A stretch of DNA of 64,000 bases from Ostrea edulis (lineage: Eukaryota): positions 22,878,001 through 22,942,000 of the forward strand of contig NC_079172.1 of assembly GCF_947568905.1 (NCBI RefSeq). Direction: 5' to 3'. Of the stretch, positions 8,437 through 29,810 are shown one piece after another. Under the pieces are notes generated by a model that saw only the letters and a list, made by a program, of their open reading frames with translations, ran no database searches and had not been told where the DNA came from. The stretch's first letter is position 1. Each line of letters starts with the position of its first letter. A program made the position numbers and the translations under genes.

Positions 8437-8988
8437 CGAGTTATCATATATTTACACATATGAAATACGGTTTCCCTTATTGTGGCAAAACCCGACACCC
8501 CGGGGGCCATGATTTGAACAAACTTGAATTTGAACTATGTCAGGAAACTTCGATGTAAATTTGAACTCTTCTGGCTCAATGGTTCTTGAGAAGATTTTTC
8601 CTATATAAATACATATAAAATGTGGTTTCCCCTAGTGTGGCCCCACCCGACCCCCAGGGGCAATGATATGAACAAACTGGAATCTGCATTATGTCAGGAA
8701 GCTTCCATGTAAAGTTGAACTCTTCTGGCTCAATGGTTCTTGAGAAAAATTTTCCTATATACACACATATAAAATATGGTTTCCCCATGTGTGGCCCCAC
8801 CCGACCCCCAGGGGCCATGATATGAACTGGAATCTGCATTATGTAAGGAAGCTTCCATGTAAAGTTGAACTCTTCTGGCTTAATGGTTCTTGAGAAGATT
8901 TTAAAAGATTTTTCCTATATATAAATACATATAAAATATGGTTTCCCCTATTGTGGCGCCATCCGACCCCTGGGGGACATGATATGAA
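8406..8988 (-). mobile_element. Non-autonomous Helentron-type element with oyster approx. 166-bp (Cg170/HindIII-like) satellite array, 3' part (left of the Polinton)
   Basis: End aacaagaggcccatgggccacatcgctcacc, then about 3.5 tandem approx. 160-bp units (tggttcttgagaagattttt...gatatgaacaaactggaatc) resembling the known oyster satellite family (recognised from memory). Confidence 0.75.
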
Positions 8989-9333
8989 AGTAGTATAACG
9001 CGTCCCGATAGGGAGTTCAACTGAGTGCACTTTTTATGCAAATGAGGTCAAGTAAGGGCGTTTTTGATTGGTCAAGCGGTGTTGGGGTCAACGGAGTGCA
9101 CTAGGACGGGGTCAACCCCAGCAGGGGTTGTAGAGCGGGTGAATAGACTGGGCTATGGCCGCTGGTCTATGATGCGGTACTTTCGCTTTGAGTTCCTGGA
9201 ATGAGTTCCTGCTATTTTTCTGAAAATCCAGTGAAATCCTGTGTATTAAATCTAAAAGAATAACAGTGTATTAAATCTAAAAGAATAACACAAGGTTTTA
9301 AGTTGACATGTTTATTAAAGAACAATAGTACAA
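8989..9333 (+). repeat. Left terminal inverted repeat (345 bp)
   Basis: 8989-9146 is the exact reverse complement of 29226-29383; the inner part matches with patches of divergence; contains a 2 x 25-bp tandem at 9241-9290. Confidence 0.95.
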
Positions 9334-9432: not shown

Positions 9433-12400
9433 ATGTCAGACAAGTTACCTACTGGACTTCCACGGAGTTATATTGAACAGCGATTGAGATTTTTGAATGA
9501 TCAGCTGAACAGACAACGGCAGCGTGAATTACAACTTCGCAGAGAGAATCAACGACGACTACAGTATTTACAGCGGGGAGGGGGGAAAAAGAAACTCATT
9601 TCGGATTATTACAAAATTCAACTGGAACGAGGACGTCAATCACGGAAATTTAAAGTCAAGGAAAATGTCTACAATGTTGCTTTCAAACCTATTCCAGAGA
9701 AAGAAAATACAACCTTCATTCGTCGGCTCTTCCGGGATATGTTAAAAAATGTGAAACAGGAAATGCAGTGCAATCCCAATGATTATCTACGTTTAAATAT
9801 TCGGCACCCGTCTCTGGATTCAGCTATTTGGTACGAATTTACGCAGTCCAATCAGCTCAACGAGGACAAAATTCTGAACAAAATAGAATCCGTCCAGCAA
9901 TCTAAAAAGGAATTCCTAATCACCGACGGGGCAGTGCAGATGGATTTTTTCCATGTTAAATATCCACAAGGCAGCGGGTGCACTAAGAAAAAACATCTAC
10001 ACATGGATAAGGAGAAATTCAAAAACTCCAAGAGAGCGATCGTTCGCATTCAAAATCCTGAGGATTCTCTCTGCTTGTCCCGGGCTATTGTGGTAGCACG
10101 TCTACACAGCCAGAAATCAAACGACCCGGCATGGGAAACGAAATGGTTACGCATGAGAAAAGGGGATTTCAAAACGCTCGACCAGAAACGAGAAGCGATA
10201 GCCTTGATGGAACAAGCTGGGTGTGTTATGAACCACCCGTGTGGGCCGCGTGAATGGGAGCAATTACAGCACGCGCTCGCCCCACAGTATCGATTGAAAA
10301 TATTTCAATTCAAAACGAATACAACTCGTTTACGACTGGAACCTATTTACAAAGGACCGGGGTACGGGACTTGTTTGAATATCCTGCTGGATAACGAGCA
10401 TTACGATGCCATTGTGTCTATGGCTGGAGTGACGGAAAACGGATACTATTGCGATTATTGCGATGTTGGTTACAGTCACATTGAAGATCATCGGACCGTC
10501 TGTCCTCATCGATGCTCATTTTGTTTAGCCGATACCCCCTGTACCCCGGACGGGACTCAGACGAATTGCCCTCATTGTAAGGGATTTTTCAGAAATGCAG
10601 CTTGTTACCAGACCCACTTGAAACCTTACAGCAGTAATACAACAACCACGGTCTGCAGTTTAATGGGGCGGTGTAACCAGTGTCAGAAATGGATGTCCAA
10701 GCAATTATTAAAACGCCACGCGTGTGGGGGTCAAACCGAATGCCGCATCTGTCACAAAGTCGTCACCATGCCTCATCACTGCTTTGTACAGACGAAACCC
10801 AAACCTAAGAAAGAAAAAGAAGAAGAAGAGGAGTTGAAAATATACATTTATTACGATTTCGAATGCAGTCAGGAAAACGGTATTCACATCCCCAATTTAT
10901 GCGTGGCAGAACGTGTGTGTCAACATTGCGACAGTGTGGATATCGACAAGCCCTGTTCTCATTGTGAAGGATTCGGATCACAACGCCGCTTCCTATTTCA
11001 AGGCCCCGACACGTTAAAACAGTTTATGGAATGGCTCTTACAGAGCGAGACCGATGAGCAAGGCCATGTGGAACTCAAACACGATGAAGCCACCATCATT
11101 GCCCACAATTTCAAAGGATACGATGGGCAGTTTATTTTGAATTACCTGGTGCACACGGCGTGTATCAAACCCACCGTCATCCTGAACGGGAGTAAAATCT
11201 TATCCATGCAAGTCTTGGGGTTGAGATTCATCGATTCTTACAACTTTCTACCCTTTGCTCTTGCCAAGATGCCCTCTGCTTTCGGATTAACGGAATTGAA
11301 AAAAGGCTATTTCCCGCACTTTTTCAACACGACAGAGAACCAGCAGTATGTGGGTCCTTACCCGGCCGCTCATTTCTACAATCCTGACGATATGTCCACC
11401 GCCAATCGTGAAGCCTTCTATACTTGGTACCATCAACAAGAGGGCAAAGTCTTTGATTTCCAGAAAGAATTCTTAGCTTACTGCATCTCGGACGTGGATA
11501 TTTTACGCCGCTGTTGTGCCCATTTCAAATCCACCCTGTTTGATCTGGTGGAAGTAGACCCCTTTCAAGAATCCATCACGTTTGCCAGCACGGCTAATTT
11601 AGCCTACCGACGAGGATTCATGACACAGGACACCATCGCCATCATTCCTAATATGGGCTACCGGCCAGCACGACGATATTCAGCTAAAGCTTGCCGATGG
11701 CTCGCCTGGTTAGAACATCAACATCACTGCATACGACATGCTAGAAATGGGGGTGAAGTCACGCTTGGACCCTATACAGTAGATGGGTATGATGAGGAAT
11801 CCCGTATCGTGTACGAATTCTATGGCTGTTACTGGCACGGCTGTCCCACCTGTTACCCGAATCTGTTGACTGACATGCATCCTCATCGTGTTCAGCATAC
11901 GTATCAAGACCTCTACCTGGACACCTTAAAACGAGCCAGTGCTTTAGAAGACCAAGGCTATACAGTCGTGAGCATATGGGAACACGAGTTTGATCGTCAG
12001 ACCCAGACCAATGCCGACTTACAGGAATTTTTACAAGGAGTCGATATACAAGATCCTTTGAATCCCCGTGACGCTTTGTACGGAGGCCGGACCAATGCTA
12101 CACGACTGTATTGTGAGGAGGGTGACATGCGATACGTGGATGTCTGTTCCCTGTACCCGTACGTGTTGAAATACAAGCCATTTCCCGTCGACCATCCCCA
12201 AGTCATCACCAGCCATTTCACCGATGTCAGAGACTATTTCGGGCTCATTCGTTGTCGTGTCCTCCCACCCCGAGAGCTGTATCACCCCGTATTACCTTAC
12301 AAGACCGGGGGCAAATTACTCTTTCCCTTATGCCGCACCTGTGCGGAACAGCGCAACTTAGGACCCGACGAGCGGTGCCAGCACACCGATTCTGAACGCA

Positions 12401-20521: not shown

Positions 20522-21925
20522 ATGATGCACCGAGAATCTTGCGCTTGTGGCACCAGCAGTTTAGAACTGTTTAAAGTGCCCCCGACCAACGTCACTTTAG
20601 AAGATTCGAAATGGATGGAATATTACCCCATTTCCAGTACCCTCAACTCGGATACGGCTCCGATTGAATTTGAAATCAAAGGACAAGGAGATGAATATCT
20701 GGATTTATCCCAAACTTATCTCCAGATGGTATGTAAATTCACGAAAGCCAATGGAACGAATCTCGCAGGAGGCAATTCGACCTCCACCCCCGTGAATAAC
20801 ATTCTCCATTCCTTGTTCAGTGAAATCGATGTCAGTCTCAATGGAAAAGTCATTACCCCGGGGACGGATACTTATCCCTACAAAGCGTATCTGGAGAAAT
20901 TGTTGTCTTATGCACCCAAGACTCTGGAAACCCAGATGAGAGCCTGTAGCTTGTGGGAAAAAGATACGGCAGGACATATGGATGAGGTCAAATTAGAAGC
21001 TCTGGCTCAAACTCCTGTGGAATTTGCAGTAGTGTCTAACAAAGTCAACATCGCGGCCGTCATCCCGACTCCCGAGTATCCGGATGATTCCAAGAATGTA
21101 GGGTTGAGAAAACGTCACGAGAAGATTACAGACAGTAAGGAGATCGTGTTGATGGATCGATTACATCTGGATTTGTTTGAGCAAGAGAAATGTCTCCCTA
21201 ATGGCTTGGATGTCCGTCTCCGATTCAATCGCGCTCGACCCCAGTTCTACATGATGACCGCTGCCGGGAGTAGTGGGAAAGTGGCCATTCAAAGTATGAT
21301 CTTGTGGGTGAGGAAAGTCAAACCTGTGCCGAGTATCATTAATCTCATCAATCAGCAACTGAGTACTCAAACGGCGAAATATCCATTGAGACGAGTGGAA
21401 GTGAAAACCTTCACCATTCCTAGTGGCACCCAATCTAAAATCACCGATCATCTGTTTCAAGGACAGATGCCTAAACTGATCGTGTTGGGCTTTGTGGACA
21501 ATGCGGCTTTTAATGGGGATAATACCAGAAACCCCTTTCATTTCCAAAATGAGAGAGTCAAGAAATTAGAAATCAGTATCAATGGAGAAATGATGGAAAC
21601 CCGACCTTTGGAACCTAATTTCACCGACGATCAGTACCTGAGATCGTATTTGAGTCTGTACAAAGGCTTGGGAAAATTAGGTCAGGACTGGGCTCCGGAC
21701 ATTACCCTAGAAGAGTATAAAAACGGTTACACCCTCTGGTGTGTGGATTTCACGAAAGATCAAGAAGCCCAGACGGATAAATTTCATCTCATACAGACGG
21801 GGAACTTGAGAGTGGAAGTGCAATTTGCCGCCAACGTAGCCAGGACCTTAAACTGTGTGGTGTATGCCGTGTTCGACAATCTGCTAGAAATCAACAAACA
21901 ACGAGAAGTCAGCATCGATTACTAA
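20522..21925 (+). CDS. Major capsid protein (double jelly-roll, hexon-like)
   Basis: [10 protein letters not shown]...EYYP...[21 protein letters not shown] and [12 protein letters not shown] motifs of the Polinton MCP; 467 aa. Confidence 0.93.
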
Positions 21926-21932
21926 GAGAGAG

Positions 21933-22430
21933 ATGGATACTCAGCAATTGAGAGATGTTTTACAACGAGATTTAGGACCGGCGTTTGCCGGTGTGTATCC
22001 TCGAGATGTCATACCTGAGCTGTTACCTCATCACAAAGCCATCGTGGTGAATACAGACCCTCACGATCGCCCTGGAGCGCATTGGGTCTGTTTGTATTTG
22101 AGTAGCCCTACCGTCGAATATTTTGATTCTTACGGATTACCCCCCAGCCATAAAGACATCCAAGACTTTATTCAACGCCACGGAGAGACTTGGATTCATA
22201 ACACCCATTGTTATCAAGATTTGAATACGGATGTCTGTGGACAATACTGTGTGTATTTTTTACATCAACGCCATCGCCATAGAAGCACCGTACGAGAATG
22301 GTTACTTCCCTGGAAAGGCACGGCCTTACAACGCGATCGTTTTGTGGCGGATTGGTTTAAAGAGACCTTCCGAAAACCGAGAACCCATCAAGGACAAACT
22401 TGTCAATGTCAAAGACTGAATGTATTGTAA
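21933..22430 (+). CDS. Maturation cysteine protease (adenain/Ulp1-like)
   Basis: VNTD...GAHW, EYFDSYG, YQDLNTDVCGQYC give H, D, Q and C catalytic residues. Confidence 0.94.
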   Translation: MDTQQLRDVLQRDLGPAFAGVYPRDVIPELLPHHKAIVVNTDPHDRPGAHWVCLYLSSPTVEYFDSYGLPPSHKDIQDFIQRHGETWIHNTHCYQDLNTDVCGQYCVYFLHQRHRHRSTVREWLLPWKGTALQRDRFVADWFKETFRKPRTHQGQTCQCQRLNVL

Positions 22431-22515
22431 ACTATGTTATTGTTATTGTTTATAGTTGGAGTTTAATAAAACGTTGGAAAAAAAAAAAAAATTCTTGTCA
22501 TTGTAATCAACCATG

Positions 22516-22556
22516 TCTTTTCAAAAAGAATGGGTAGCCCTGAAAAGGGCTGTTTT
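22516..22556 (-). terminator. Histone-mRNA-type 3' stem-loop plus downstream element (copy 1)
   Basis: Minus strand AAAAC AGCCCTTTTCAGGGCT ACCCA TTCTTTTT GAAAAGA; stem-loop 22536-22551, downstream of ORF 22644-22940. Confidence 0.8.
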
Positions 22557-22643
22557 CTTTCTCTCTCTCTGTTCTTGGTCTTTTCTCTTCTTCTTCTCTC
22601 TTCTCCTTCTTCTCCTTCTCTTCTTCTTTTCTTCTCGGTCCCC

Positions 22644-22940
22644 TCACTGTCTGTTCTTCTTCTTCTTTCTTCTCTTCTTTTTCTGCTCCTCCGGGGGTTG
22701 CTCGTGGTCAAACACAAACACAGGCAACCACCCGTGTTTAAAAAACAATCTCCCCGGAGGCCGTTGCACCACTTCTAACTCTGCGTCCCAGTTTTCTTCT
22801 GGCGGGGGCAGATCCTGGCTCATGGGCGGTGGGGGAAGAGCCTCCCGTGAGGCCGGCGGGGTAATCTCTGCCTCCCAATCCTCCTCCCATTTGATACAAT
22901 AATCATTCACTGTAGGGTCTGGTCCTACTCTACGGCTCAT
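22644..22940 (-). CDS. Hypothetical 98-aa protein: acidic/Pro-rich with basic NLS-like tail
   Basis: EEDWEAEI and EENWDAEL repeats, LPPPP, KKKRRKKKK; has a dedicated upstream promoter and 3' stem-loop. Confidence 0.6.
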   Translation of the reverse strand: MSRRVGPDPTVNDYCIKWEEDWEAEITPPASREALPPPPMSQDLPPPEENWDAELEVVQRPPGRLFFKHGWLPVFVFDHEQPPEEQKKKRRKKKKNRQ

Positions 22941-22984
22941 GGTTCTGGTTCCTTTAAAAAATCGGAATGCCCGATTTTTGACGT

Positions 22985-23033
22985 TGCGCTCGGTTTAAAA
23001 AGGCGAGAGCGCGGACGTCCTCGAAAACATCCC
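22985..23033 (-). promoter_or_regulatory. Duplicated H4/HiNF-P-like promoter element, copy 1
   Basis: Minus strand GGGATGTTTTCGAGGACGTCCGCGCT...TTTAAACCGAGCGCA; 25/26 identical to 25044-25069. Confidence 0.65.
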
Positions 23034-23047
23034 CTACCTCAGATGGC

Positions 23048-23089
23048 TGACGTCATGTTGATGACTCATCAAAAAACACTATATAAATA
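23048..23089 (+). promoter_or_regulatory. CRE + AP-1 + TATA promoter
   Basis: TGACGTCA 23048-23055, TGACTCA 23062-23068, TATATAAATA 23080-23089, ATG at 23117. Confidence 0.7.
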
Positions 23090-23116
23090 GGTCACTTGTT
23101 ACCATTTTTCTCAATC

Positions 23117-23518
23117 ATGTCGTTTGAACGGTACGCGGATGATGAAAATGATGTACTAGTGTGTGGGTATTGCCGAGGACCTTGGAGCACTTGTGGGTGT
23201 TTTCATTATAAAAAAGAAAACATCCTGGCCAAACAGAAGTGGATAGAGAGATTGGCAGAGCTGACGTTTTATCCCTTTGTCTATAAATGTTGTGGTCACA
23301 CTAGAGAACCCTGGCTAGAGTGTAAGTGTCCGCAGCATTGTACCATCACCCCTGAAGAAGAAATAGCGCATAAGGACTGTACCTGTGAGATCTGTCAGGA
23401 GTTTAGAGAGCGCTGGACTCAGAGAAAGTTTGATCCCCGGGTGTTTCAACATTGTCCTTACAGTCAAGAACCCCGGTCAACGTGTACCTGTGAGACCTGT
23501 CAACCAGCATGTCGGTGA
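23117..23518 (+). CDS. Cys-rich putative zinc-binding protein (133 aa)
   Basis: Three copies of C-x-[YH]-x-[RQ]-[GE]-P-[WR]-x-x-C-x-C plus two CTCExC motifs. Confidence 0.7.
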   Translation: MSFERYADDENDVLVCGYCRGPWSTCGCFHYKKENILAKQKWIERLAELTFYPFVYKCCGHTREPWLECKCPQHCTITPEEEIAHKDCTCEICQEFRERWTQRKFDPRVFQHCPYSQEPRSTCTCETCQPACR

Positions 23519-24006
23519 CGGATCTACGAGGAGATGTATTATCTCTACCTTGGGTGGATGCTATTGTACAACAATGTAACTGTTTAACGGTGAAACCTCA
23601 TGGATTAAGTCAACGTATTGCCGAACGATTTCCTTGGGCTAATCTGTATGCGACCCGACAACCTTTAGGACGGAGAAATTTAGCTATAGCAGCGGATCGA
23701 GGAATACCGGGTACTGTGTGTATTATGCCTCATTCTACTCATCCTGATGTGATCTGTTTGTTAGCGCAATGGGATTACGGGAGAGGCACTCAACGCTTAC
23801 CCCTGTATGCCGATACCCCCGAACAACGTGAACTTTGGTTTCAACAATGTTTACAGGAATTAGGCACTTTGTCTTACCAGACTTTAGCGTTTCCTTATCG
23901 TATTGGATGTGGATTAGCCGGAGGCAATTGGACTCATTATAGACAATGGATTTGTGACTTTGCTTATCAGTATCATAAACATGTGTACATTGTCAAGAAA
24001 ATGTAA
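23509..24006 (+). CDS. Macrodomain (ADP-ribose binding/hydrolase; Poa1p/TARG1/DarG-like class)
   Basis: GDVL...AIVQQCNC...GLSQRIAERFP...PGTV...LLAQWDYG...LAFPYRIGCGLAGGNW. Confidence 0.9.
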   Translation: MSVTDLRGDVLSLPWVDAIVQQCNCLTVKPHGLSQRIAERFPWANLYATRQPLGRRNLAIAADRGIPGTVCIMPHSTHPDVICLLAQWDYGRGTQRLPLYADTPEQRELWFQQCLQELGTLSYQTLAFPYRIGCGLAGGNWTHYRQWICDFAYQYHKHVYIVKKM

Positions 24007-24098
24007 CTTTATTATAGCTTTATTCTAGCTATTACTTGTGTTAATAAAACTTTTTTAAAACAAACTTGTGTGTTTCTTGATTTTTGCCATAAAAAGTG

Positions 24099-24139
24099 TC
24101 TTTTCAAAAAAGTTGGTGGCCCTGAAAAGGGCCGTTTGG
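24099..24139 (-). terminator. Histone-mRNA-type 3' stem-loop plus downstream element (copy 2, perfect consensus)
   Basis: Minus strand CCAAAC GGCCCTTTTCAGGGCC ACCAA CTTTTTT GAAAAGA; stem-loop 24118-24133, 23 nt after the TGA of ORF 24157-24948. Confidence 0.9.
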
Positions 24140-24156
24140 TCCTAAGGACCGACTTT

Positions 24157-24948
24157 TCATTCCCTGCTTCCGGTAAACCGGCATAACGGGCACCGTCCCC
24201 GGGTGTGTCGCCGCTCCTGTAACTCTTCCACGCACGAGCAGCAAGCTGGGCGCTGCCCACATCCCCTGCACGTAATTCCAGAGTGTACCCTGTCTTGCCA
24301 GCAGACAGGACACTTAAACCAGATGGGAACCGCCCTATCTGCCCAGCCAGGGACAGTCATAGGGTGGTTCCTCGGGGGATGAGTTGCCACCGGTGCGTGG
24401 GTTGGTCTCGGTGGTGGTGGAGTCCTCCCTGCAAACCGGATGGTAGGTGGTGGGGGTCTTGCAGGGGCTGCTGGTCTCGGTGGTGATGCTGTGTCTGCCA
24501 CCAACAGCGACGGACTCTGGGCTGGACTGGGAGGTGGTGCGGGGGACGGTGACCGCGGTGAATACTCCACCGGTGACGCTGGTGAGTCGCTCATCGGCAC
24601 CGGGCTGTATTCCACTGGTGCCGATGGGATCGCTGGTGGTGGTGTTGTAGGCGTCGCCGGTGAGTAAGGTGGTGGTGGTGAGGGTGGCTGTGGGGCCCGT
24701 CGGCGCGGTCTCGTACCCGTGGAGATTCGAGCGGTGCGGCGGCGGGGTGCCCTCCCTTCATACTCGGCCCGCACCCGGCAGATGATCTCACGGACCCCAC
24801 TCTGGTCGAAAGGGGAGAAGGTGCTCAGGTCGTTCTCAGAACGCACGACCCAATTCTCCCCTACCCGTTCCTCAGCCACCACTACCAGCCGGTACCGGAA
24901 TCCAGGCAAGGTCTGAAAATTGTAGAGCGGGTCTCTTCTTGTAGCCAT
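24157..24948 (-). CDS. Pro/Ser-rich protein with C-terminal RING-like finger (263 aa)
   Basis: CPVC-x10-CRGCGQRPACCSC-x13-CPLC; PPPPY; YSPATPT, YSPVPMS, YSPRSPS; first ATG 24948. Confidence 0.8.
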   Translation of the reverse strand: MATRRDPLYNFQTLPGFRYRLVVVAEERVGENWVVRSENDLSTFSPFDQSGVREIICRVRAEYEGRAPRRRTARISTGTRPRRRAPQPPSPPPPYSPATPTTPPPAIPSAPVEYSPVPMSDSPASPVEYSPRSPSPAPPPSPAQSPSLLVADTASPPRPAAPARPPPPTIRFAGRTPPPPRPTHAPVATHPPRNHPMTVPGWADRAVPIWFKCPVCWQDRVHSGITCRGCGQRPACCSCVEELQERRHTRGRCPLCRFTGSRE

Positions 24949-25022
24949 TCTTCTTTCTTCTTTAAAATCCTTCAAAAATCTTCTATAACTGTGCTGGGTC
25001 ACCAGTGAAGCGAACTGGCGAG

Positions 25023-25069
25023 TGCGCCGGTATATATCGGGAAAGCGCGGACCTCCTCGAAAACATCCC
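25023..25069 (-). promoter_or_regulatory. Duplicated H4/HiNF-P-like promoter element, copy 2
   Basis: Minus strand GGGATGTTTTCGAGGAGGTCCGCGCTTTCCCGATATATACCGGCGCA, with TCACT Inr-like motif 29 nt after the TATA. Confidence 0.7.
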
Positions 25070-25503
25070 TCGCTTCGGAGACGAAGCCAAGATGGTGGCC
25101 GTCAAAATGGCGGATTTGTGCTTTCGAGTAGAGAGATTTTTCTCATTGTCTTTTTCTAGACATTCGATATCTGTGCAAGGTAGATTTAATCTGATAGATT
25201 CTGAGACGGCGAATGCGTTAAACTTATTTTTATTTTGCTACGTCGCATAGTTTTCAAAGAAACAGAGGTTAAAGAGGTCGAGTCGAGGTTCAATGTTTCT
25301 TCACCCCTCTTTAAAAATTTATTTCTCGACCATGTACATCCCTAACAACATCTCATAAGGTCTATTCGATAGAAAACACCTTATTTGATTCGATTTTCAC
25401 TCTACCTTTAGGATTTTCTGGATTCCTCAACAAATAAACCCTTCTCTGAGAGACTCAACCAAACACAGCTTTCGTGTAAACAATTTTATTCATGTCACAT
25501 ATT

Positions 25504-25722
25504 TCAAATACATAACTCCCACACACAACACCAATTCACATGTCTTTTTAAAATAGGGTCCAACATTTTTTCCATTTCTCGAATCCTGCGTTGAAATCGA
25601 TATCGATCAGCGGCTACAGTCATCCAGATACTTGTCCGGTCTTCTTCGGGTAACAGATGCACTTCATTTTGATCCAGATTAAAAGTCACACGTTTAACTT
25701 GACGTACATCTCTCGAAGACAT
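25504..25722 (-). CDS. PPP1R15/GADD34-like (ICP34.5/DP71L-type) PP1-recruiting protein, 72 aa
   Basis: KRVTF (RVxF) then EVHLL...W...AADRYRFQRRIREMEKMLDPIL, matching the GADD34/DP71L W...ARDRxRFxRRI...L signature; ATG 25722. Confidence 0.88.
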   Translation of the reverse strand: MSSRDVRQVKRVTFNLDQNEVHLLPEEDRTSIWMTVAADRYRFQRRIREMEKMLDPILKRHVNWCCVWELCI

Positions 25723-25991
25723 CGTAGTCTGATTTTCTCGATTTCTGCTCTGTCTGTGAGTCGAATTCGTTTCAATTCCTGGCCCATTAAATGAATCAGT
25801 ACTAAGGCTTGCGGGGTGATCCGGTTCTCGATCAAATACTGACAGAGACATGGATAGTCCTTTAAGCTGATGGGAAATAATTCTTCTCGCATATAGTGTA
25901 ACACAAATTCAAACTGCCCAGAATGAATGTCTGTGAGATAATCCAATACATAAACTATCGCTTTCTCTGTGATGTGGTCACTGCTGGCCAT
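25686..25991 (-). CDS. Helical paralogue 4 of tandem array (101 aa)
   Basis: MASSD start and FPISLKDY...LVLIHLMGQELK...IEKI...CLREMY, shared with its neighbours. Confidence 0.8.
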   Translation of the reverse strand: MASSDHITEKAIVYVLDYLTDIHSGQFEFVLHYMREELFPISLKDYPCLCQYLIENRITPQALVLIHLMGQELKRIRLTDRAEIEKIRLRCLREMYVKLNV

Positions 25992-26325
25992 CCTCCGGGA
26001 ATAAATGAAATGAATTAAGTTCTTCACACTTTATGTATACTTCTCGAAGCCAGTCCTTGGTGATACTTTCAATCTCGGCGGTTTTTTCAGGCATGCGTTT
26101 CTTGAATTCCTCCCCCGCGACATAAATTAACATCAACCCCGCATCGTTATAGAGATTGATGTACACATGGTTCCGTAGATCTGTATATTCGTCCAGAGTC
26201 ATTGGAAACACCCCCGCTATCAGATAATTTTTAACAGCTTGAAACACCGTATCGTCTTGCATTTTCTCCACCCATTCTAATGCATGGTTATGCGCTTTTT
26301 CTGCGATGTTGTCACTGCTGGCCAT
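25978..26325 (-). CDS. Helical paralogue 3 of tandem array (115 aa)
   Basis: MASSD...FPMTLDEY...GLMLIYVAGEEFKKRMPE...IESI...WLREVY. Confidence 0.8.
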   Translation of the reverse strand: MASSDNIAEKAHNHALEWVEKMQDDTVFQAVKNYLIAGVFPMTLDEYTDLRNHVYINLYNDAGLMLIYVAGEEFKKRMPEKTAEIESITKDWLREVYIKCEELNSFHLFPEDGQQ

Positions 26326-26353
26326 CCTCCAGGAATAAAGGAAAAGAAAACGG

Positions 26354-26707
26354 TTAGGTTTTTTTATACACCTTTTCCAGCCAGTGATCGGTAATCGCTA
26401 CAATCGCCCCAGTCTTCTCAGGTTCCCGTCGTCTAAATTCTTGGTCCATGTTATAAATCATGATCAATCCAGACTCTCTGTTCAGGTTGTCGGCTATATG
26501 CTTGCAAACGCTGGAATATTCATATAAGGTCATAGGAAATTCCCAAAAGATCAACAACTTCATGGCGAATTTATATCTCAACGGCTGTTTTTCTTTCCAG
26601 TCCTTGATACACTGTAATGCAGCGCTACGAGCGTTGTTCACCGATTCTTTGTAGTCCTCGAAATGCTGTAATACAGCGGTAAGAACGTTGTTGGTCAATT
26701 CAGCCAT
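26354..26707 (-). CDS. Helical paralogue 2 of tandem array (117 aa)
   Basis: FPMTLYEY...IADNL...GLIMIY...EFRRREPE...WLEKVY; first ATG 26707. Confidence 0.8.
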   Translation of the reverse strand: MAELTNNVLTAVLQHFEDYKESVNNARSAALQCIKDWKEKQPLRYKFAMKLLIFWEFPMTLYEYSSVCKHIADNLNRESGLIMIYNMDQEFRRREPEKTGAIVAITDHWLEKVYKKT

Positions 26708-26744
26708 GATGATCAAAATGAAAAAATTCTAAAACGTTCTTGTT

Positions 26745-27077
26745 TTATAACAGGGCAGCCATTCCTTTCATACGAATCAGTTCCACGAATCCTTTTTGTA
26801 GACAATCGCGTAAGATCCGATCAATGTCACTCATCTGGTCTGGAAGATTCTGTTTCAATTCCTCAGCATACAAATAAATCATGAGTAAACGTCCCGTATT
26901 GGTATTCTCCGCTAATGAATCAGCAATCCGTTGAAAACTATGTACATTTCTGACCTCCGGTGACATCTGTTGTACAAATTGACGAGCATTTTGAATGTGA
27001 GGATTATGTAAGGCCACGTTCATACATTGTAGTACATAACTATATCCATTTATTCTCGTAGTAGCACTGCCCCCCAT
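26745..27077 (-). CDS. Helical paralogue 1 of tandem array (110 aa), possible Bcl-2-fold protein
   Basis: SFQRIADSLAENTNTGRLLMIYLYAEEL resembles BH1 (FxxVxxELFxDGxNWGRIVxxxxF); TATAAATA on the minus strand at 27107-27114. Confidence 0.65.
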   Translation of the reverse strand: MGGSATTRINGYSYVLQCMNVALHNPHIQNARQFVQQMSPEVRNVHSFQRIADSLAENTNTGRLLMIYLYAEELKQNLPDQMSDIDRILRDCLQKGFVELIRMKGMAALL

Positions 27078-27128
27078 AGTAAATAACGAACGTTCAGAAA
27101 ACACCTGTATTTATAGGTAAAGGTTATG

Positions 27129-27181
27129 CATCACGTGATCAAACACCTGCACCACGTGATCAAGCACCTGTACGTCAGCTG
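27129..27181. promoter_or_regulatory. E-box cluster (2 x 21-bp direct repeat) in a divergent promoter
   Basis: catcacgtgatcaaacacctg 27129-27149, caccacgtgatcaagcacctg 27150-27170, then TACGTCAGCTG. Confidence 0.6.
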
Positions 27182-27216
27182 GTTTTTCTACAGTCATTCT
27201 TGTCTGACCTTCAGTC

Positions 27217-27723
27217 ATGGATACACGGAGAATTTTAAGAGCGAGACGCCGCGGCCAGGGAATACAACCAGTGGAGAATTTAACCATAGTAGAAGATTAT
27301 GTAGACGAGATGGAGATCTGGGCCAATTTAGTACAGAGATGTCGCCATCGATTACGCTGGGGCCGATCTAAAAATTGGTGTTTTGACTATGTATTGCGGT
27401 CACATGAAACAGTGGAGGATATTTACCTGCGTTTAAGTGACATGTACCTGAAAAATTCCCCCCTCATACAGTACATGATTTACCAGTTTTACACGTTATT
27501 GAACGGCACTCAAAAAGTATCGGGATTTATTCGACTGGAGAAACCACGTTACCGGAGAAGTGTATGGGTATTGTTTTGGGATGCACACTGGATGTGGGAA
27601 ACCGTCGAAGAGATACGTTTCCCCGGGAGAAGAGCTCGACAATTAGTACAACACATTATATCCGAAGATCATGACTTACACGTGTATATAGAAGAACCTG
27701 CGTATGAAGCCGGCCATTTTTAA
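27217..27723 (+). CDS. Hypothetical 168-aa protein resembling a catalytically dead CRESS-virus HUH Rep endonuclease domain
   Basis: SKNWCFDY (motif I-like), YMIYQ...GTQKVSGFIRL (motif II-like, no His), DAHW; no motif III Tyr. Confidence 0.55.
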   Translation: MDTRRILRARRRGQGIQPVENLTIVEDYVDEMEIWANLVQRCRHRLRWGRSKNWCFDYVLRSHETVEDIYLRLSDMYLKNSPLIQYMIYQFYTLLNGTQKVSGFIRLEKPRYRRSVWVLFWDAHWMWETVEEIRFPGRRARQLVQHIISEDHDLHVYIEEPAYEAGHF

Positions 27724-27742
27724 AAATAAAAACTTCATGCAC

Positions 27743-27758
27743 AGCCCTTTTTAGGGCT
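27743..27758 (+). terminator. Variant histone-type stem-loop (copy 3)
   Basis: AC AGCCCTTTTTAGGGCT AC, 19 nt after the stop of ORF 27217-27723; no clear purine-rich downstream element. Confidence 0.55.
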
Positions 27759-27811
27759 ACTTTAAACACCAATATAAGTTCCATTCCACTAAAGTCAATG
27801 TGTACCAATGG

Positions 27812-27883
27812 GCACTAGCACGCGCTGGTCGCGAGAAACCGGCTTTTCAAGTTCAATTAGTGCACTAGCACGCGCTGGTCGCG
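27812..27883 (+). promoter_or_regulatory. 22-bp direct repeat (50-bp period) upstream of the zinc-knuckle gene
   Basis: gcactagcacgcgctggtcgcg at 27812-27833 and 27862-27883, each followed by gaaaccgg(c/t)ttttc. Confidence 0.6.
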
Positions 27884-28043
27884 CGATGTTCTAGCTGAAA
27901 CCGGTTTTTCCAGAAAAAGATGATGCAACCACGTGCTCCCCACGTGCCCCTCACGAGACAGAATAGTCTAGACATTTTGCTGGCTATAAAAGCGGAGCCC
28001 CAGTGTCAGTCCTCATTCGATCTTCAATCACCTTCCAGAAGAC

Positions 28044-28961
28044 ATGGCTCAGAAACAACTAGAATTTGTGGACAAAGCTCAGAAGAAAATAGATCAGCTG
28101 GTACAGAAGGAGATGGGGCCACAAAAAGACTACATTGAACTGAAGAAAGCTAAGAGTGACGATCAGAAGACTGAACTGGGGAAGACCTCGAACTTCTTGC
28201 TCACGTCTCCAGACTACGTTGCTCAAAGAAGAAGAGAAGAGAAGAAGATGGCCCAGACCTCGAACCAGACCACGAGCTTCAATCTCACGCCTTCAGACCA
28301 CGTTGCTCGACAAGTGAAGATGGCCCAGACCTCGGATTACCTCCCTAGCCAGAATCCGACAGACCCGGGATTAGGCTTCTATTTTCCCGATTCACAGGAC
28401 GCTACGGGACTGGAGATGGGCTTATACGATAAACCCCCCTTCGGCGGAGAAGATTCCCCCATGAGCAGGACCGATTTCGCCATCATTACCACGACACTCG
28501 ACGGGATCGTTAACCGCATTAATGTGCTGAGTAATGAGATTGGAAATCATACCACAATCCTACTGAAGAAGCTGGAAGACCTGACTTCTAAAAAACCTAG
28601 GAAGGAATACACTCCAGATTACACTGCTAACCCGTGCTACACGTGTGGAGAAACAGGACATTGGTCGCCGGATTGCCCACAGAAAACAGATTATCCGCAG
28701 ACCAGTAAGAAATCGTGGTCGGCAGATTCTCAACAGACCAGCAAGAAAACCAAACAAAAGGATCCTTGCTTCAAATGCGGAAAAATAGGACACTGGATTA
28801 GTGAGTGTCCAGAAGAACAAGCGGAGATAGATGCGATGATTGGACCCGTACCTGGCTCAAAACCCCCTGTGAAGAGAGAATACACACCGTTAGAGATGTG
28901 GAATCCACCCGCACCTACTGAAGAACGGCCAAAAAAGAAGAAGAAACTCAGCAGAAAGTAA
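28044..28961 (+). CDS. Coiled-coil plus double CCHC zinc-knuckle protein with C-terminal NLS (305 aa)
   Basis: CYTCGETGHWSPDC and CFKCGKIGHWISEC; RPKKKKKLSRK; TATA 27985, Inr 28013, AATAAA 29052. Confidence 0.85.
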   Translation: MAQKQLEFVDKAQKKIDQLVQKEMGPQKDYIELKKAKSDDQKTELGKTSNFLLTSPDYVAQRRREEKKMAQTSNQTTSFNLTPSDHVARQVKMAQTSDYLPSQNPTDPGLGFYFPDSQDATGLEMGLYDKPPFGGEDSPMSRTDFAIITTTLDGIVNRINVLSNEIGNHTTILLKKLEDLTSKKPRKEYTPDYTANPCYTCGETGHWSPDCPQKTDYPQTSKKSWSADSQQTSKKTKQKDPCFKCGKIGHWISECPEEQAEIDAMIGPVPGSKPPVKREYTPLEMWNPPAPTEERPKKKKKLSRK

Positions 28962-29034
28962 TGGACTGTGCTTGAACTGTTATGCTTATTGAACTGTTTT
29001 TATGCTTATTGAATTGTTTTGCATTGTTCTATGC

Positions 29035-29383
29035 TTGTACCATTGTTCTTTAATAAACATGTCAACTTAAAACCTTGTGTTATTCTTTTAGATTTAATAC
29101 ACTGTTATTCTTTTAGATTTAATACACAGGATTTCACTGGATTTTATACCGATTTTCAGAAAAATAGCTTTTCCAGGAACTCAAAGCGAAAGTACCGCAT
29201 GCTAAAATTAGGACCATAGGCCAGCCTATTCACCCGCTCTACAACCCCTGCTGGGGTTGACCCCGTCCTAGTGCACTCCGTTGACCCCAACACCGCTTGA
29301 CCAATCAAAAACGCCCTTACTTGACCTCATTTGCATAAAAAGTGCACTCAGTTGAACTCCCTATCGGGACGCGTTATACTACT
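29035..29383 (-). repeat. Right terminal inverted repeat (349 bp)
   Basis: Reverse complement of 8989-9333. Confidence 0.95.
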
Positions 29384-29810
29384 TATGAACAAACTTGAAT
29401 CTCCATTATGTCAGCAAACTTCCACGTAAATTTCAACTATACTGGTACAGTGGTTCATGAGATTTTATTAAATGACCCCACCCTATTTTTACACTTTTGT
29501 GATTATCTCCCATTTGAAGAGAACCTGGCCCTTAATTTGAACAATTTTGAATTCCCTTCAACTAAGGATGATTTGCATTAAGTTTGAATGAAATTGGCTT
29601 ACTGGTTCTGGAGAAGATTTTTAAAAATTTTCAGTGTATTTTTACCGATTTGCTATTATCTCCCCTTGGATAAGAGGGTTGGCCCTCATTTGAACAATTT
29701 TGAATCCCCTTCACCCAAGGATGATTTGTGCCAACATTGGTTAAAATTGGCCCTATGGTTTTGGAGAAGTTGAAAATGTAAATGTTTAACAGACAGACGA
29801 CGGACAAAAA

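Follow-up and report, generated by a model that had tools for sequence, protein, structure and literature searches.

The locus at 27217..27723 raises the question of how a gene resembling the Rep nuclease of CRESS viruses, which have single-stranded (ss) DNA, came to lie in a Polinton, and what its product may do there. The window, by which we mean the whole 64,000-nucleotide stretch of Ostrea edulis DNA that was analysed, contains a complete Polinton of 20.4 kb spanning 8989-29383 and flanked by the 6-bp target duplication TATGAA, and the Rep-like gene sits in an accessory block near its right end. The preliminary description of the window was therefore right to assign the gene to such an element.

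The Polinton and its accessory block

The features of the element are as follows.

8989..9333, + strand: left terminal inverted repeat (TIR), which starts AGTAGT; target-site duplication TATGAA at 8983-8988
9433..22430, + strand: Polinton core, with Pfam matches for PolB, IAP, ATPase, integrase and protease
9433-13395, + strand: protein-primed PolB (Pfam)
13431-13958, + strand: IAP gene, BIR plus RING, directly 3' of PolB (Pfam)
14000-14638, + strand: A32-type (packaging) ATPase (Pfam)
16676-17761, + strand: rve integrase with chromodomain (Pfam)
21933-22430, + strand: adenain-type protease (Pfam)
25504..27077, - strand: upstream neighbours, four short related ORFs and an ORF with a PP1-binding match, divergent from the Rep-like gene
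27217..27723, + strand: Rep-like accessory gene, 168 aa, with a variable N-terminal extension (residues ~1-45) and one predicted HUH-fold domain (~49-150)
27812..27913, + strand: short direct repeats 3' of the Rep-like gene
28044..28961, + strand: downstream neighbour with two CCHC zinc knuckles, adjoining the Rep-like gene in all three subfamilies
29035..29383, - strand: right TIR; target-site duplication TATGAA at 29384-29389

The TIRs, the 6-bp target duplication, the protein-primed PolB, the rve integrase, the packaging ATPase and the adenain protease together identify the element as a Polinton/Maverick (adintovirus). The gene at 20522-21925 is probably the major capsid gene, a label drawn from its size, position and conservation; it has no Pfam match. 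The TIRs are ~345 nt long and each contains GGTCAA four times (in the left TIR at 9046, 9070, 9086 and 9110), in agreement with the repetition remarked on earlier, and the hexamer occurs in the TIRs of all three subfamilies of the element. A second unit, TCAAC(T/G)GAGTGCA, is repeated within 8989-9120 (at 9017 and 9088) and is likewise conserved in all subfamilies; it could be a better iteron candidate than GGTCAA, and host factors could also explain such sites. The same explanation could apply to the octamer ATGCAAAT at TIR nt 48-55, which among the TIRs listed was seen only in that of the window. The TIR end TAGTATAAC is one mismatch away from the circovirus nonanucleotide and was given no weight, one-mismatch matches being found in the window at chance level (57 seen, 58.8 expected). 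No origin hairpin was seen near the Rep-like gene.

The surroundings of the gene contain several further ORFs and repeats. A 115-aa ORF at 25504-25851 (-) contains the motif RVTF, matches PP1c_bdg slightly below the cut-off (E 1.9e-5) and presumably resembles GADD34 or ICP34.5; it overlaps the next ORF in another frame, and its pN equals or exceeds its pS in comparison with subfamily C. The four short tandem ORFs at 25686-27077 (-) match one another by tblastn, so that they are likely to be a paralogous array as judged from their sequences, and the first of them has a weak Bcl-2 match (E 0.0066). Further upstream, a 165-aa ORF at 23509-24006 (+), present in two copies in some relatives, has no Pfam match and looks like a macrodomain. 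Clustered E-box-like repeats (CACGTG/CACCTG) lie between the divergent genes at 27099-27172, where the other subfamilies have different repeat units. In subfamily C, a 70-nt version of the direct repeats found downstream of the Rep-like gene is present on both sides of it and marks the junction of one gene loss.

On a larger scale, synonymous divergence between the loci L189-L194 and window positions 20522-28961 ranges from ~0.1 to 0.7 along the element, which suggests an exchange of modules between subfamilies. At L195 (G000:C8:33156600-33166500) the capsid and Rep-like genes of a subfamily A copy are separated by a distant Polinton, likely a nested insertion, whose own capsid gene is 34% identical. 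In the window itself, a host gene with long, repetitive exons rich in Lys, Ser, Pro and Thr occupies 30976-62769, the Polinton being upstream of or within that gene.

Likeness to CRESS Rep nuclease domains

The Rep-like ORF has G at positions -3 and +4 of its ATG, and AATAAA directly follows its stop codon. The motifs quoted in the preliminary description are present in the order given there, and can be placed as follows.

27334..27372, + strand: Arg/Lys-rich stretch (residues 40-52) just 5' of motif I, in all three subfamilies
27376..27390, + strand: motif I equivalent W54-C55-F56-D57-Y58, with Asp or Glu across the family where CRESS Reps have Thr
27490..27528, + strand: metal-ligand region, with Y92 and the motif II equivalent G97-T-Q-K100-V-S102-G-F104
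27652..27663, + strand: motif III equivalent H146-I-I-S149, which is Y-x-x-K in CRESS Reps and in 11/31 family members

The Arg/Lys-rich stretch is possibly a nuclear localisation signal or a DNA contact. In CRESS Reps two metal ligands come from motif II and the third is an upstream Glu, the Tyr of motif III being the nucleophile, as described in the available parts of PMC10288648, PMC8780604 and PMC6668415; the His/Glu/Gln triad binds the metal that is required for cleavage (PMC8780604, in its available part). In the alignment, the Rep Glu falls at or next to Y92, and His, Gln and Tyr correspond to K100, S102 and H146, respectively. Residues were counted in the 31 family sequences long enough to align, with nine partial ones excluded. 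K100 and S102 are invariant (31/31), as are L107, R111 and R139, while R106, K109 and Y92 are found in 30/31; one of the excluded partial sequences, P0044, has Asn at the first of the two former ligand positions. Position 146 is far more variable (Ala 14, Tyr 11, His 3, Phe 2, Ile 1). All 11 relatives with Tyr146 also have Lys three residues on, and such a YxxK at the right place gives independent support for the register of the alignment; the Tyr-keeping clade is possibly an intermediate of inactivation. The Tyr is absent from the window's protein and from all 14 other aligned copies of the Ostrea edulis genome. The earlier claim that the HUH histidines and the catalytic Tyr had been replaced thus holds as to the loss of catalytic residues and needs amending in two respects: the ancestral pair would have been His and Gln instead of two His residues, and the Tyr, lost in this genome, is kept in 11 of the 31 relatives. 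In all three subfamilies the ORF ends ~20 residues past helix 3, leaving room for neither an oligomerisation domain nor an SF3 helicase, the latter having already been described as missing. Judging from these replacements, the protein has very probably lost nicking activity.

The sole Pfam match of the protein is Viral_Rep (PF02407), at E 0.015 and 16 bits, where the gathering cut-off is 26 bits; the same entry is matched by 8 of 16 family members, with a best E of 0.007. For comparison, 116 CRESS Rep HUH domains were collected from IMG/VR by a motif II pattern, a selection which by itself fixes His and Gln in that set. When a family profile of 24 sequences was aligned with these domains by hhalign, a probability of 95.9 and a score of 52.9 over 94 columns were obtained, compared to scores of 9.0-16.5 in the controls (one reversed and 11 column-shuffled profiles). 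With the Rep HMM in HMMER, 8/24 family members scored above the best of 984 decoys and the window's protein tied with it at 8.0 bits; in the reverse direction, 23 of the 116 Reps exceeded the best of 1044 decoys. Closest to the family are Reps of the HUQ type (His-x-Gln), and identity to CRESS Rep endonuclease domains is 13-19%. No CRESS Rep appeared among the matches in searches of 1.8 and 5.8 billion proteins. PF02407 was matched nowhere in the host genome, a search that is uninformative since the control genomes gave no match either. Sequence searches of the PDB with the protein and with the family profile returned only kinesin and ribosomal matches, by chance, and the ESM Atlas gave kinesin-like leads at 0.77, followed by nothing usable.

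The full-length model of the protein was poor (pLDDT 53). Even so, 24 of the 25 named rows in its BFVD top 50 are CRESS or nanovirus proteins, and a circovirus Rep ranks fourth in the PDB; in the wide VIA structure search, run with this first low-confidence model only, a Rep stands at rank 39 (Z 5.0). The model of the domain (residues 45-168) reached pLDDT 72, with a predicted core of strand-helix-strand-strand-helix-strand-helix, the strand and helix order of HUH Reps, in which strands 1 and 3 carry motifs I and II, respectively, and helix 3 carries motif III. All six Foldseek matches in the PDB at E<=0.001 are Rep nuclease domains of circoviruses or redondoviruses. VIA-align superimposes the domain on PCV2 Rep with Z 8.8 (rmsd 3.4, 89 residues aligned). 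The papillomavirus E1 DNA-binding domain, at Z 8.1, is level with the circovirus matches, and generic ferredoxin folds (ribosomal S6, ACT) reach Z 7-7.6. An RRM-like HUH fold, on which the preliminary description had staked its reading, is thus what the domain model predicts; the modelled structure by itself indicates an HUH-like domain, and its CRESS type is read from the sequence.

A phylogeny with CRESS Reps, which had been suggested at the outset, was built from 20 family members and 30 Reps (69 columns). Its root fell between the Tyr-keeping and the Tyr-lacking clades and is not stable, having moved in 3/3 runs when the 10 motif III columns were left out; the stem from the family to the sampled Reps is ~2 substitutions per site. 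From the profile match and the modelled fold, the origin in a CRESS Rep that had been proposed for this gene is almost certain.

Copies, selection and gene loss

Among 150 scored candidates in the 895-Mb host genome, at least 146 match the Rep-like gene, and they form three subfamilies. At least 82 of these copies are full length, stop-free and 94-100% identical, and most of the others belong to two subfamilies at ~43-55%. Across 20 divergent loci, among the matches listed, the order of neighbours is the same wherever preserved: short ORFs, then the Rep-like gene, then the zinc-knuckle gene. Outside this genome, a search of 1.84 billion proteins gave 16 matches, seven of which are true relatives; the remaining nine are TPR/CHAT repeat proteins, rejected as spurious after matching over one short stretch. 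A profile search gave 19 clusters, all short and from contigs of 0.5-5.4 kb. Among 6829 candidates there was none of greater length and no fusion, though this is weak evidence, and neither viral contigs, queried with the family or the capsid gene, nor metagenome contigs yielded a related locus.

Contigs from three of four sequencing runs, whose status as RNA is a guess, cover parts of related genes. Those of run X4, compared with window positions 26700-29000, cover 27442-27766 at ~90-95% likeness and have a loose end at 28608, presumably a cDNA template-switch adapter. A related gene may thus be transcribed in another organism, although the hint is weak and DNA carry-over is a possible alternative.

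Between subfamilies, dN/dS is 0.19-0.44 where it could be computed (13 sequences) and 0.17-0.37 in a second calculation, values qualified by a dS of 1.0-2.4, close to saturation. On these ratios, the gene is under purifying selection between subfamilies. Inside subfamilies dN/dS is scattered (0.12-2.5), as is expected of copies decaying after insertion. The genomic copies, the between-subfamily ratios and the relatives outside this genome indicate that the family is real, small and under constraint.

Between subfamilies, identity is 45-50% for the Rep-like protein and 86-88% for the capsid gene; the Rep-like gene thus changes much faster than the latter, at about the rate of the short ORFs beside it. 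Across the three subfamilies, the initial ~46 nt of the TIR show 78-96% identity. A fast gene beside a conserved TIR core would be expected of a gene involved in conflict more than of one whose product binds a core origin. With an overall pI of 5.3-9.6, mostly 8-9.6, the family does not exceed active Rep domains (median 8.8) in basicity.

In subfamily A, 81 of 82 capsid loci have the Rep-like gene within 14 kb, and in the remaining one it is 26 kb away. In subfamilies B and C it accompanies the capsid gene at 38/49 loci. Ten of the 11 gene-less B/C loci were inspected: six end before or within the accessory block, and four retain both neighbours and the TIR and are missing the Rep-like gene. 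These four clean copies form two pairs, L181 and L183 in subfamily B and L182 and L187 in subfamily C, each with a common junction, which in subfamily C lies inside the 70-nt direct repeat flanking the gene. The gene was therefore likely lost twice, with each loss copied to a second locus, and two clean losses, each at two loci, make it likely that the gene is dispensable in cis. The gene-less copies could have kept their TIRs through helper copies that supply the protein in trans.

Possible functions and comparison with captured Reps

The scenario that we prefer starts from a co-infecting ssDNA virus as the likely source of the Rep, captured, as we infer, before the three subfamilies split. 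The captured protein lacks metal ligands, catalytic Tyr, oligomerisation domain and helicase. Its likely role is that of a nuclear protein, acting in trans, that binds the Polinton's own DNA without cutting it and thereby adjusts the replication or transcription of this DNA. We hold this regulatory role tentatively, at somewhat less than an even chance. DNA binding is suggested by the invariant Lys at the former His position and by the near-invariant Arg/Lys and aromatic residues. By analogy, it is also suggested by the dead HUH domains that serve as origin-binding domains in polyomaviruses and papillomaviruses, of which that of E1 resembles our model. Against a regulator, the basic residues could be a localisation signal instead, and the conservation of the TIR core while the protein diverges, together with the four gene-less copies that keep their TIRs, weighs against an essential TIR-binding role. 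The GGTCAA repeats are tied to the protein by no result and could be read by host factors, the polymerase or the integrase.

Two other explanations would leave the gene's ancestry or its chemistry in a different state. A chance likeness, in which an unrelated ferredoxin-fold protein merely resembles a Rep, would account for single-sequence scores under the Pfam cut-off, for the failure of any CRESS Rep to appear in the large protein searches and for the Z scores of ribosomal S6 and ACT. It is highly improbable, given a profile score three times that of the best control, three motifs in register on the expected strands and helix, and relatives that keep YxxK at the right place. A residual or altered chemistry, by which the family, or at least the YxxK clade, would nick or covalently bind DNA with the invariant Lys replacing the metal, draws on the motif III Tyr and Lys in 11/31 and on the invariance of K100 and S102. 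It too is very unlikely, the Tyr being missing from every aligned copy of this genome, and the whole family having other residues in place of His and Gln and of the motif I Thr, by which these two are positioned.

The remaining explanations concern the target of the protein. It may occupy, without cutting them, the iterons or origin hairpin of CRESS viruses that infect the same cell, blocking their Rep and thereby protecting the replicating Polinton and, through integrated copies, the host. A sequence signature nearest to HUQ-type Reps is consistent with such a decoy, and fast evolution, a site in the accessory block and loss in cis all fit a conflict gene. The idea was proposed for the apvReps of avipoxviruses by Kinsella et al., who discounted it since poxviruses are cytoplasmic (PMC10193959, in its available part). 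That objection would not hold here, since integration of the Polinton is nuclear and a basic stretch near the N-terminus has been retained. On the other hand, the protein has no oligomerisation domain with which to poison the Rep hexamer and could act only by competing for DNA; in the beta-4 region, from which Reps derive their ssDNA specificity according to the available part of PMC8780604, the alignment is poor and there is an insertion; a long stem separates the family from the sampled Reps; and neither a donor or target virus nor a Viral_Rep match in the host genome was found, although the control gave none either. We regard this anti-viral role as unlikely, though worth serious attention, and its extension, in which a Rep cut down to a dead origin-binding head acts as a nuclear decoy and more than 100 integrated copies form an inherited host defence against ssDNA viruses, as a decidedly speculative one. 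Also unlikely, and not to be dismissed, is a protein-binding modulator of the host, in which the fold would be reused as a scaffold for a host or viral protein and nucleic-acid binding would be gone. The neighbours with IAP, PP1-binding, weak Bcl-2-like and zinc-knuckle matches would suit such a role, as would a rate of divergence similar to that of the neighbouring short ORFs and a ferredoxin/RRM-like fold, common in protein adaptors; yet the invariant positions are largely basic or aromatic and surround the former active-site strand, which suits nucleic acid, and no result suggests a partner.

The preliminary description took polyomavirus large T and papillomavirus E1 as precedents for the regulatory reading. 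They share the inactivated HUH fold with our protein, but a closer precedent is provided by avipoxvirus apvRep-1, -3 and -4, captured cressdnavirus Rep endonuclease domains whose function is not established and for which both self-regulation and dominant-negative defence were raised (Kinsella et al. 2023, PMC10193959, available part). Like these, the Rep-like gene encodes an endonuclease domain only, in a dsDNA virus, with the HUQ inactivated, the Tyr missing and no oligomerisation domain, and is under purifying selection with occasional loss. As the available text describes them, the apvReps differ in being carried by a cytoplasmic poxvirus, and not by an integrating Polinton of an animal germ line, and in having lost the region with the nuclear signal, where the Polinton protein has a basic N-terminal stretch; the latter is also more diverged from Reps. 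Since the two carriers are unrelated, the capture by the Polinton was presumably an independent one.

The E1 and large T domains are essential, form one protein with an SF3 helicase and retain none of the three motifs (PMC6668415, available part). The Rep-like protein, in contrast, stands alone, is likely dispensable in cis and keeps remnants of the motifs; identity with E1 is 9-10%. With HUQ-type CRESS Rep endonucleases (PF02407; PCV2 6wdz/8h56, Muscovy duck circovirus 7kii/7kij, Vientovirus 9pqf) it shares the fold, the order and spacing of motifs I-III and residual sequence, and it differs in the replaced metal ligands and catalytic Tyr and in lacking the oligomerisation and SF3 helicase domains. 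HUH domains without a fused helicase are also found in varidnaviruses or eukaryotic mobile elements as active nucleases, namely in mriyaviruses (PMC11253617), as circovirus Rep-like nickases of some polisuviruses (bioRxiv 10.64898/2026.10.13.758929) and in Replitrons (PMC10288648); in the available parts of these sources their motifs are retained, and they are interpreted as initiators of replication or as transposases. Unlike them, the domain described here has no catalytic residues, and its Polinton has its own protein-primed PolB and rve integrase. HHV-6 U94 is similarly a Rep that a nuclear dsDNA virus has captured and co-opted and whose endonuclease motifs are inactivated, but it is of parvovirus origin and has kept its helicase domain (PMC10193959, available part). 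An auxiliary CRESS Rep has been reported in a parvovirus group. No report of a dead Rep in a Polinton was found in the available portions of the literature, adintovirus, preplasmiviricot and coral polintovirus papers included; the Starrett 2021 and Buck 2024 maps, or Repbase, could annotate the gene. It is apparently the same kind of gene as apvRep-1, -3 and -4 in a different carrier, and one so far unreported for Polintons.

Polintons would thereby join the short list of dsDNA viruses that have taken a Rep from ssDNA viruses and hold its disarmed nuclease domain under selection, which suggests that a CRESS virus and a Polinton once infected the same animal cell together. With a nuclear, high-copy carrier, natural gene-less variants and a Tyr-keeping sister clade, self-regulation and action against CRESS viruses may be tested against each other with one small protein.
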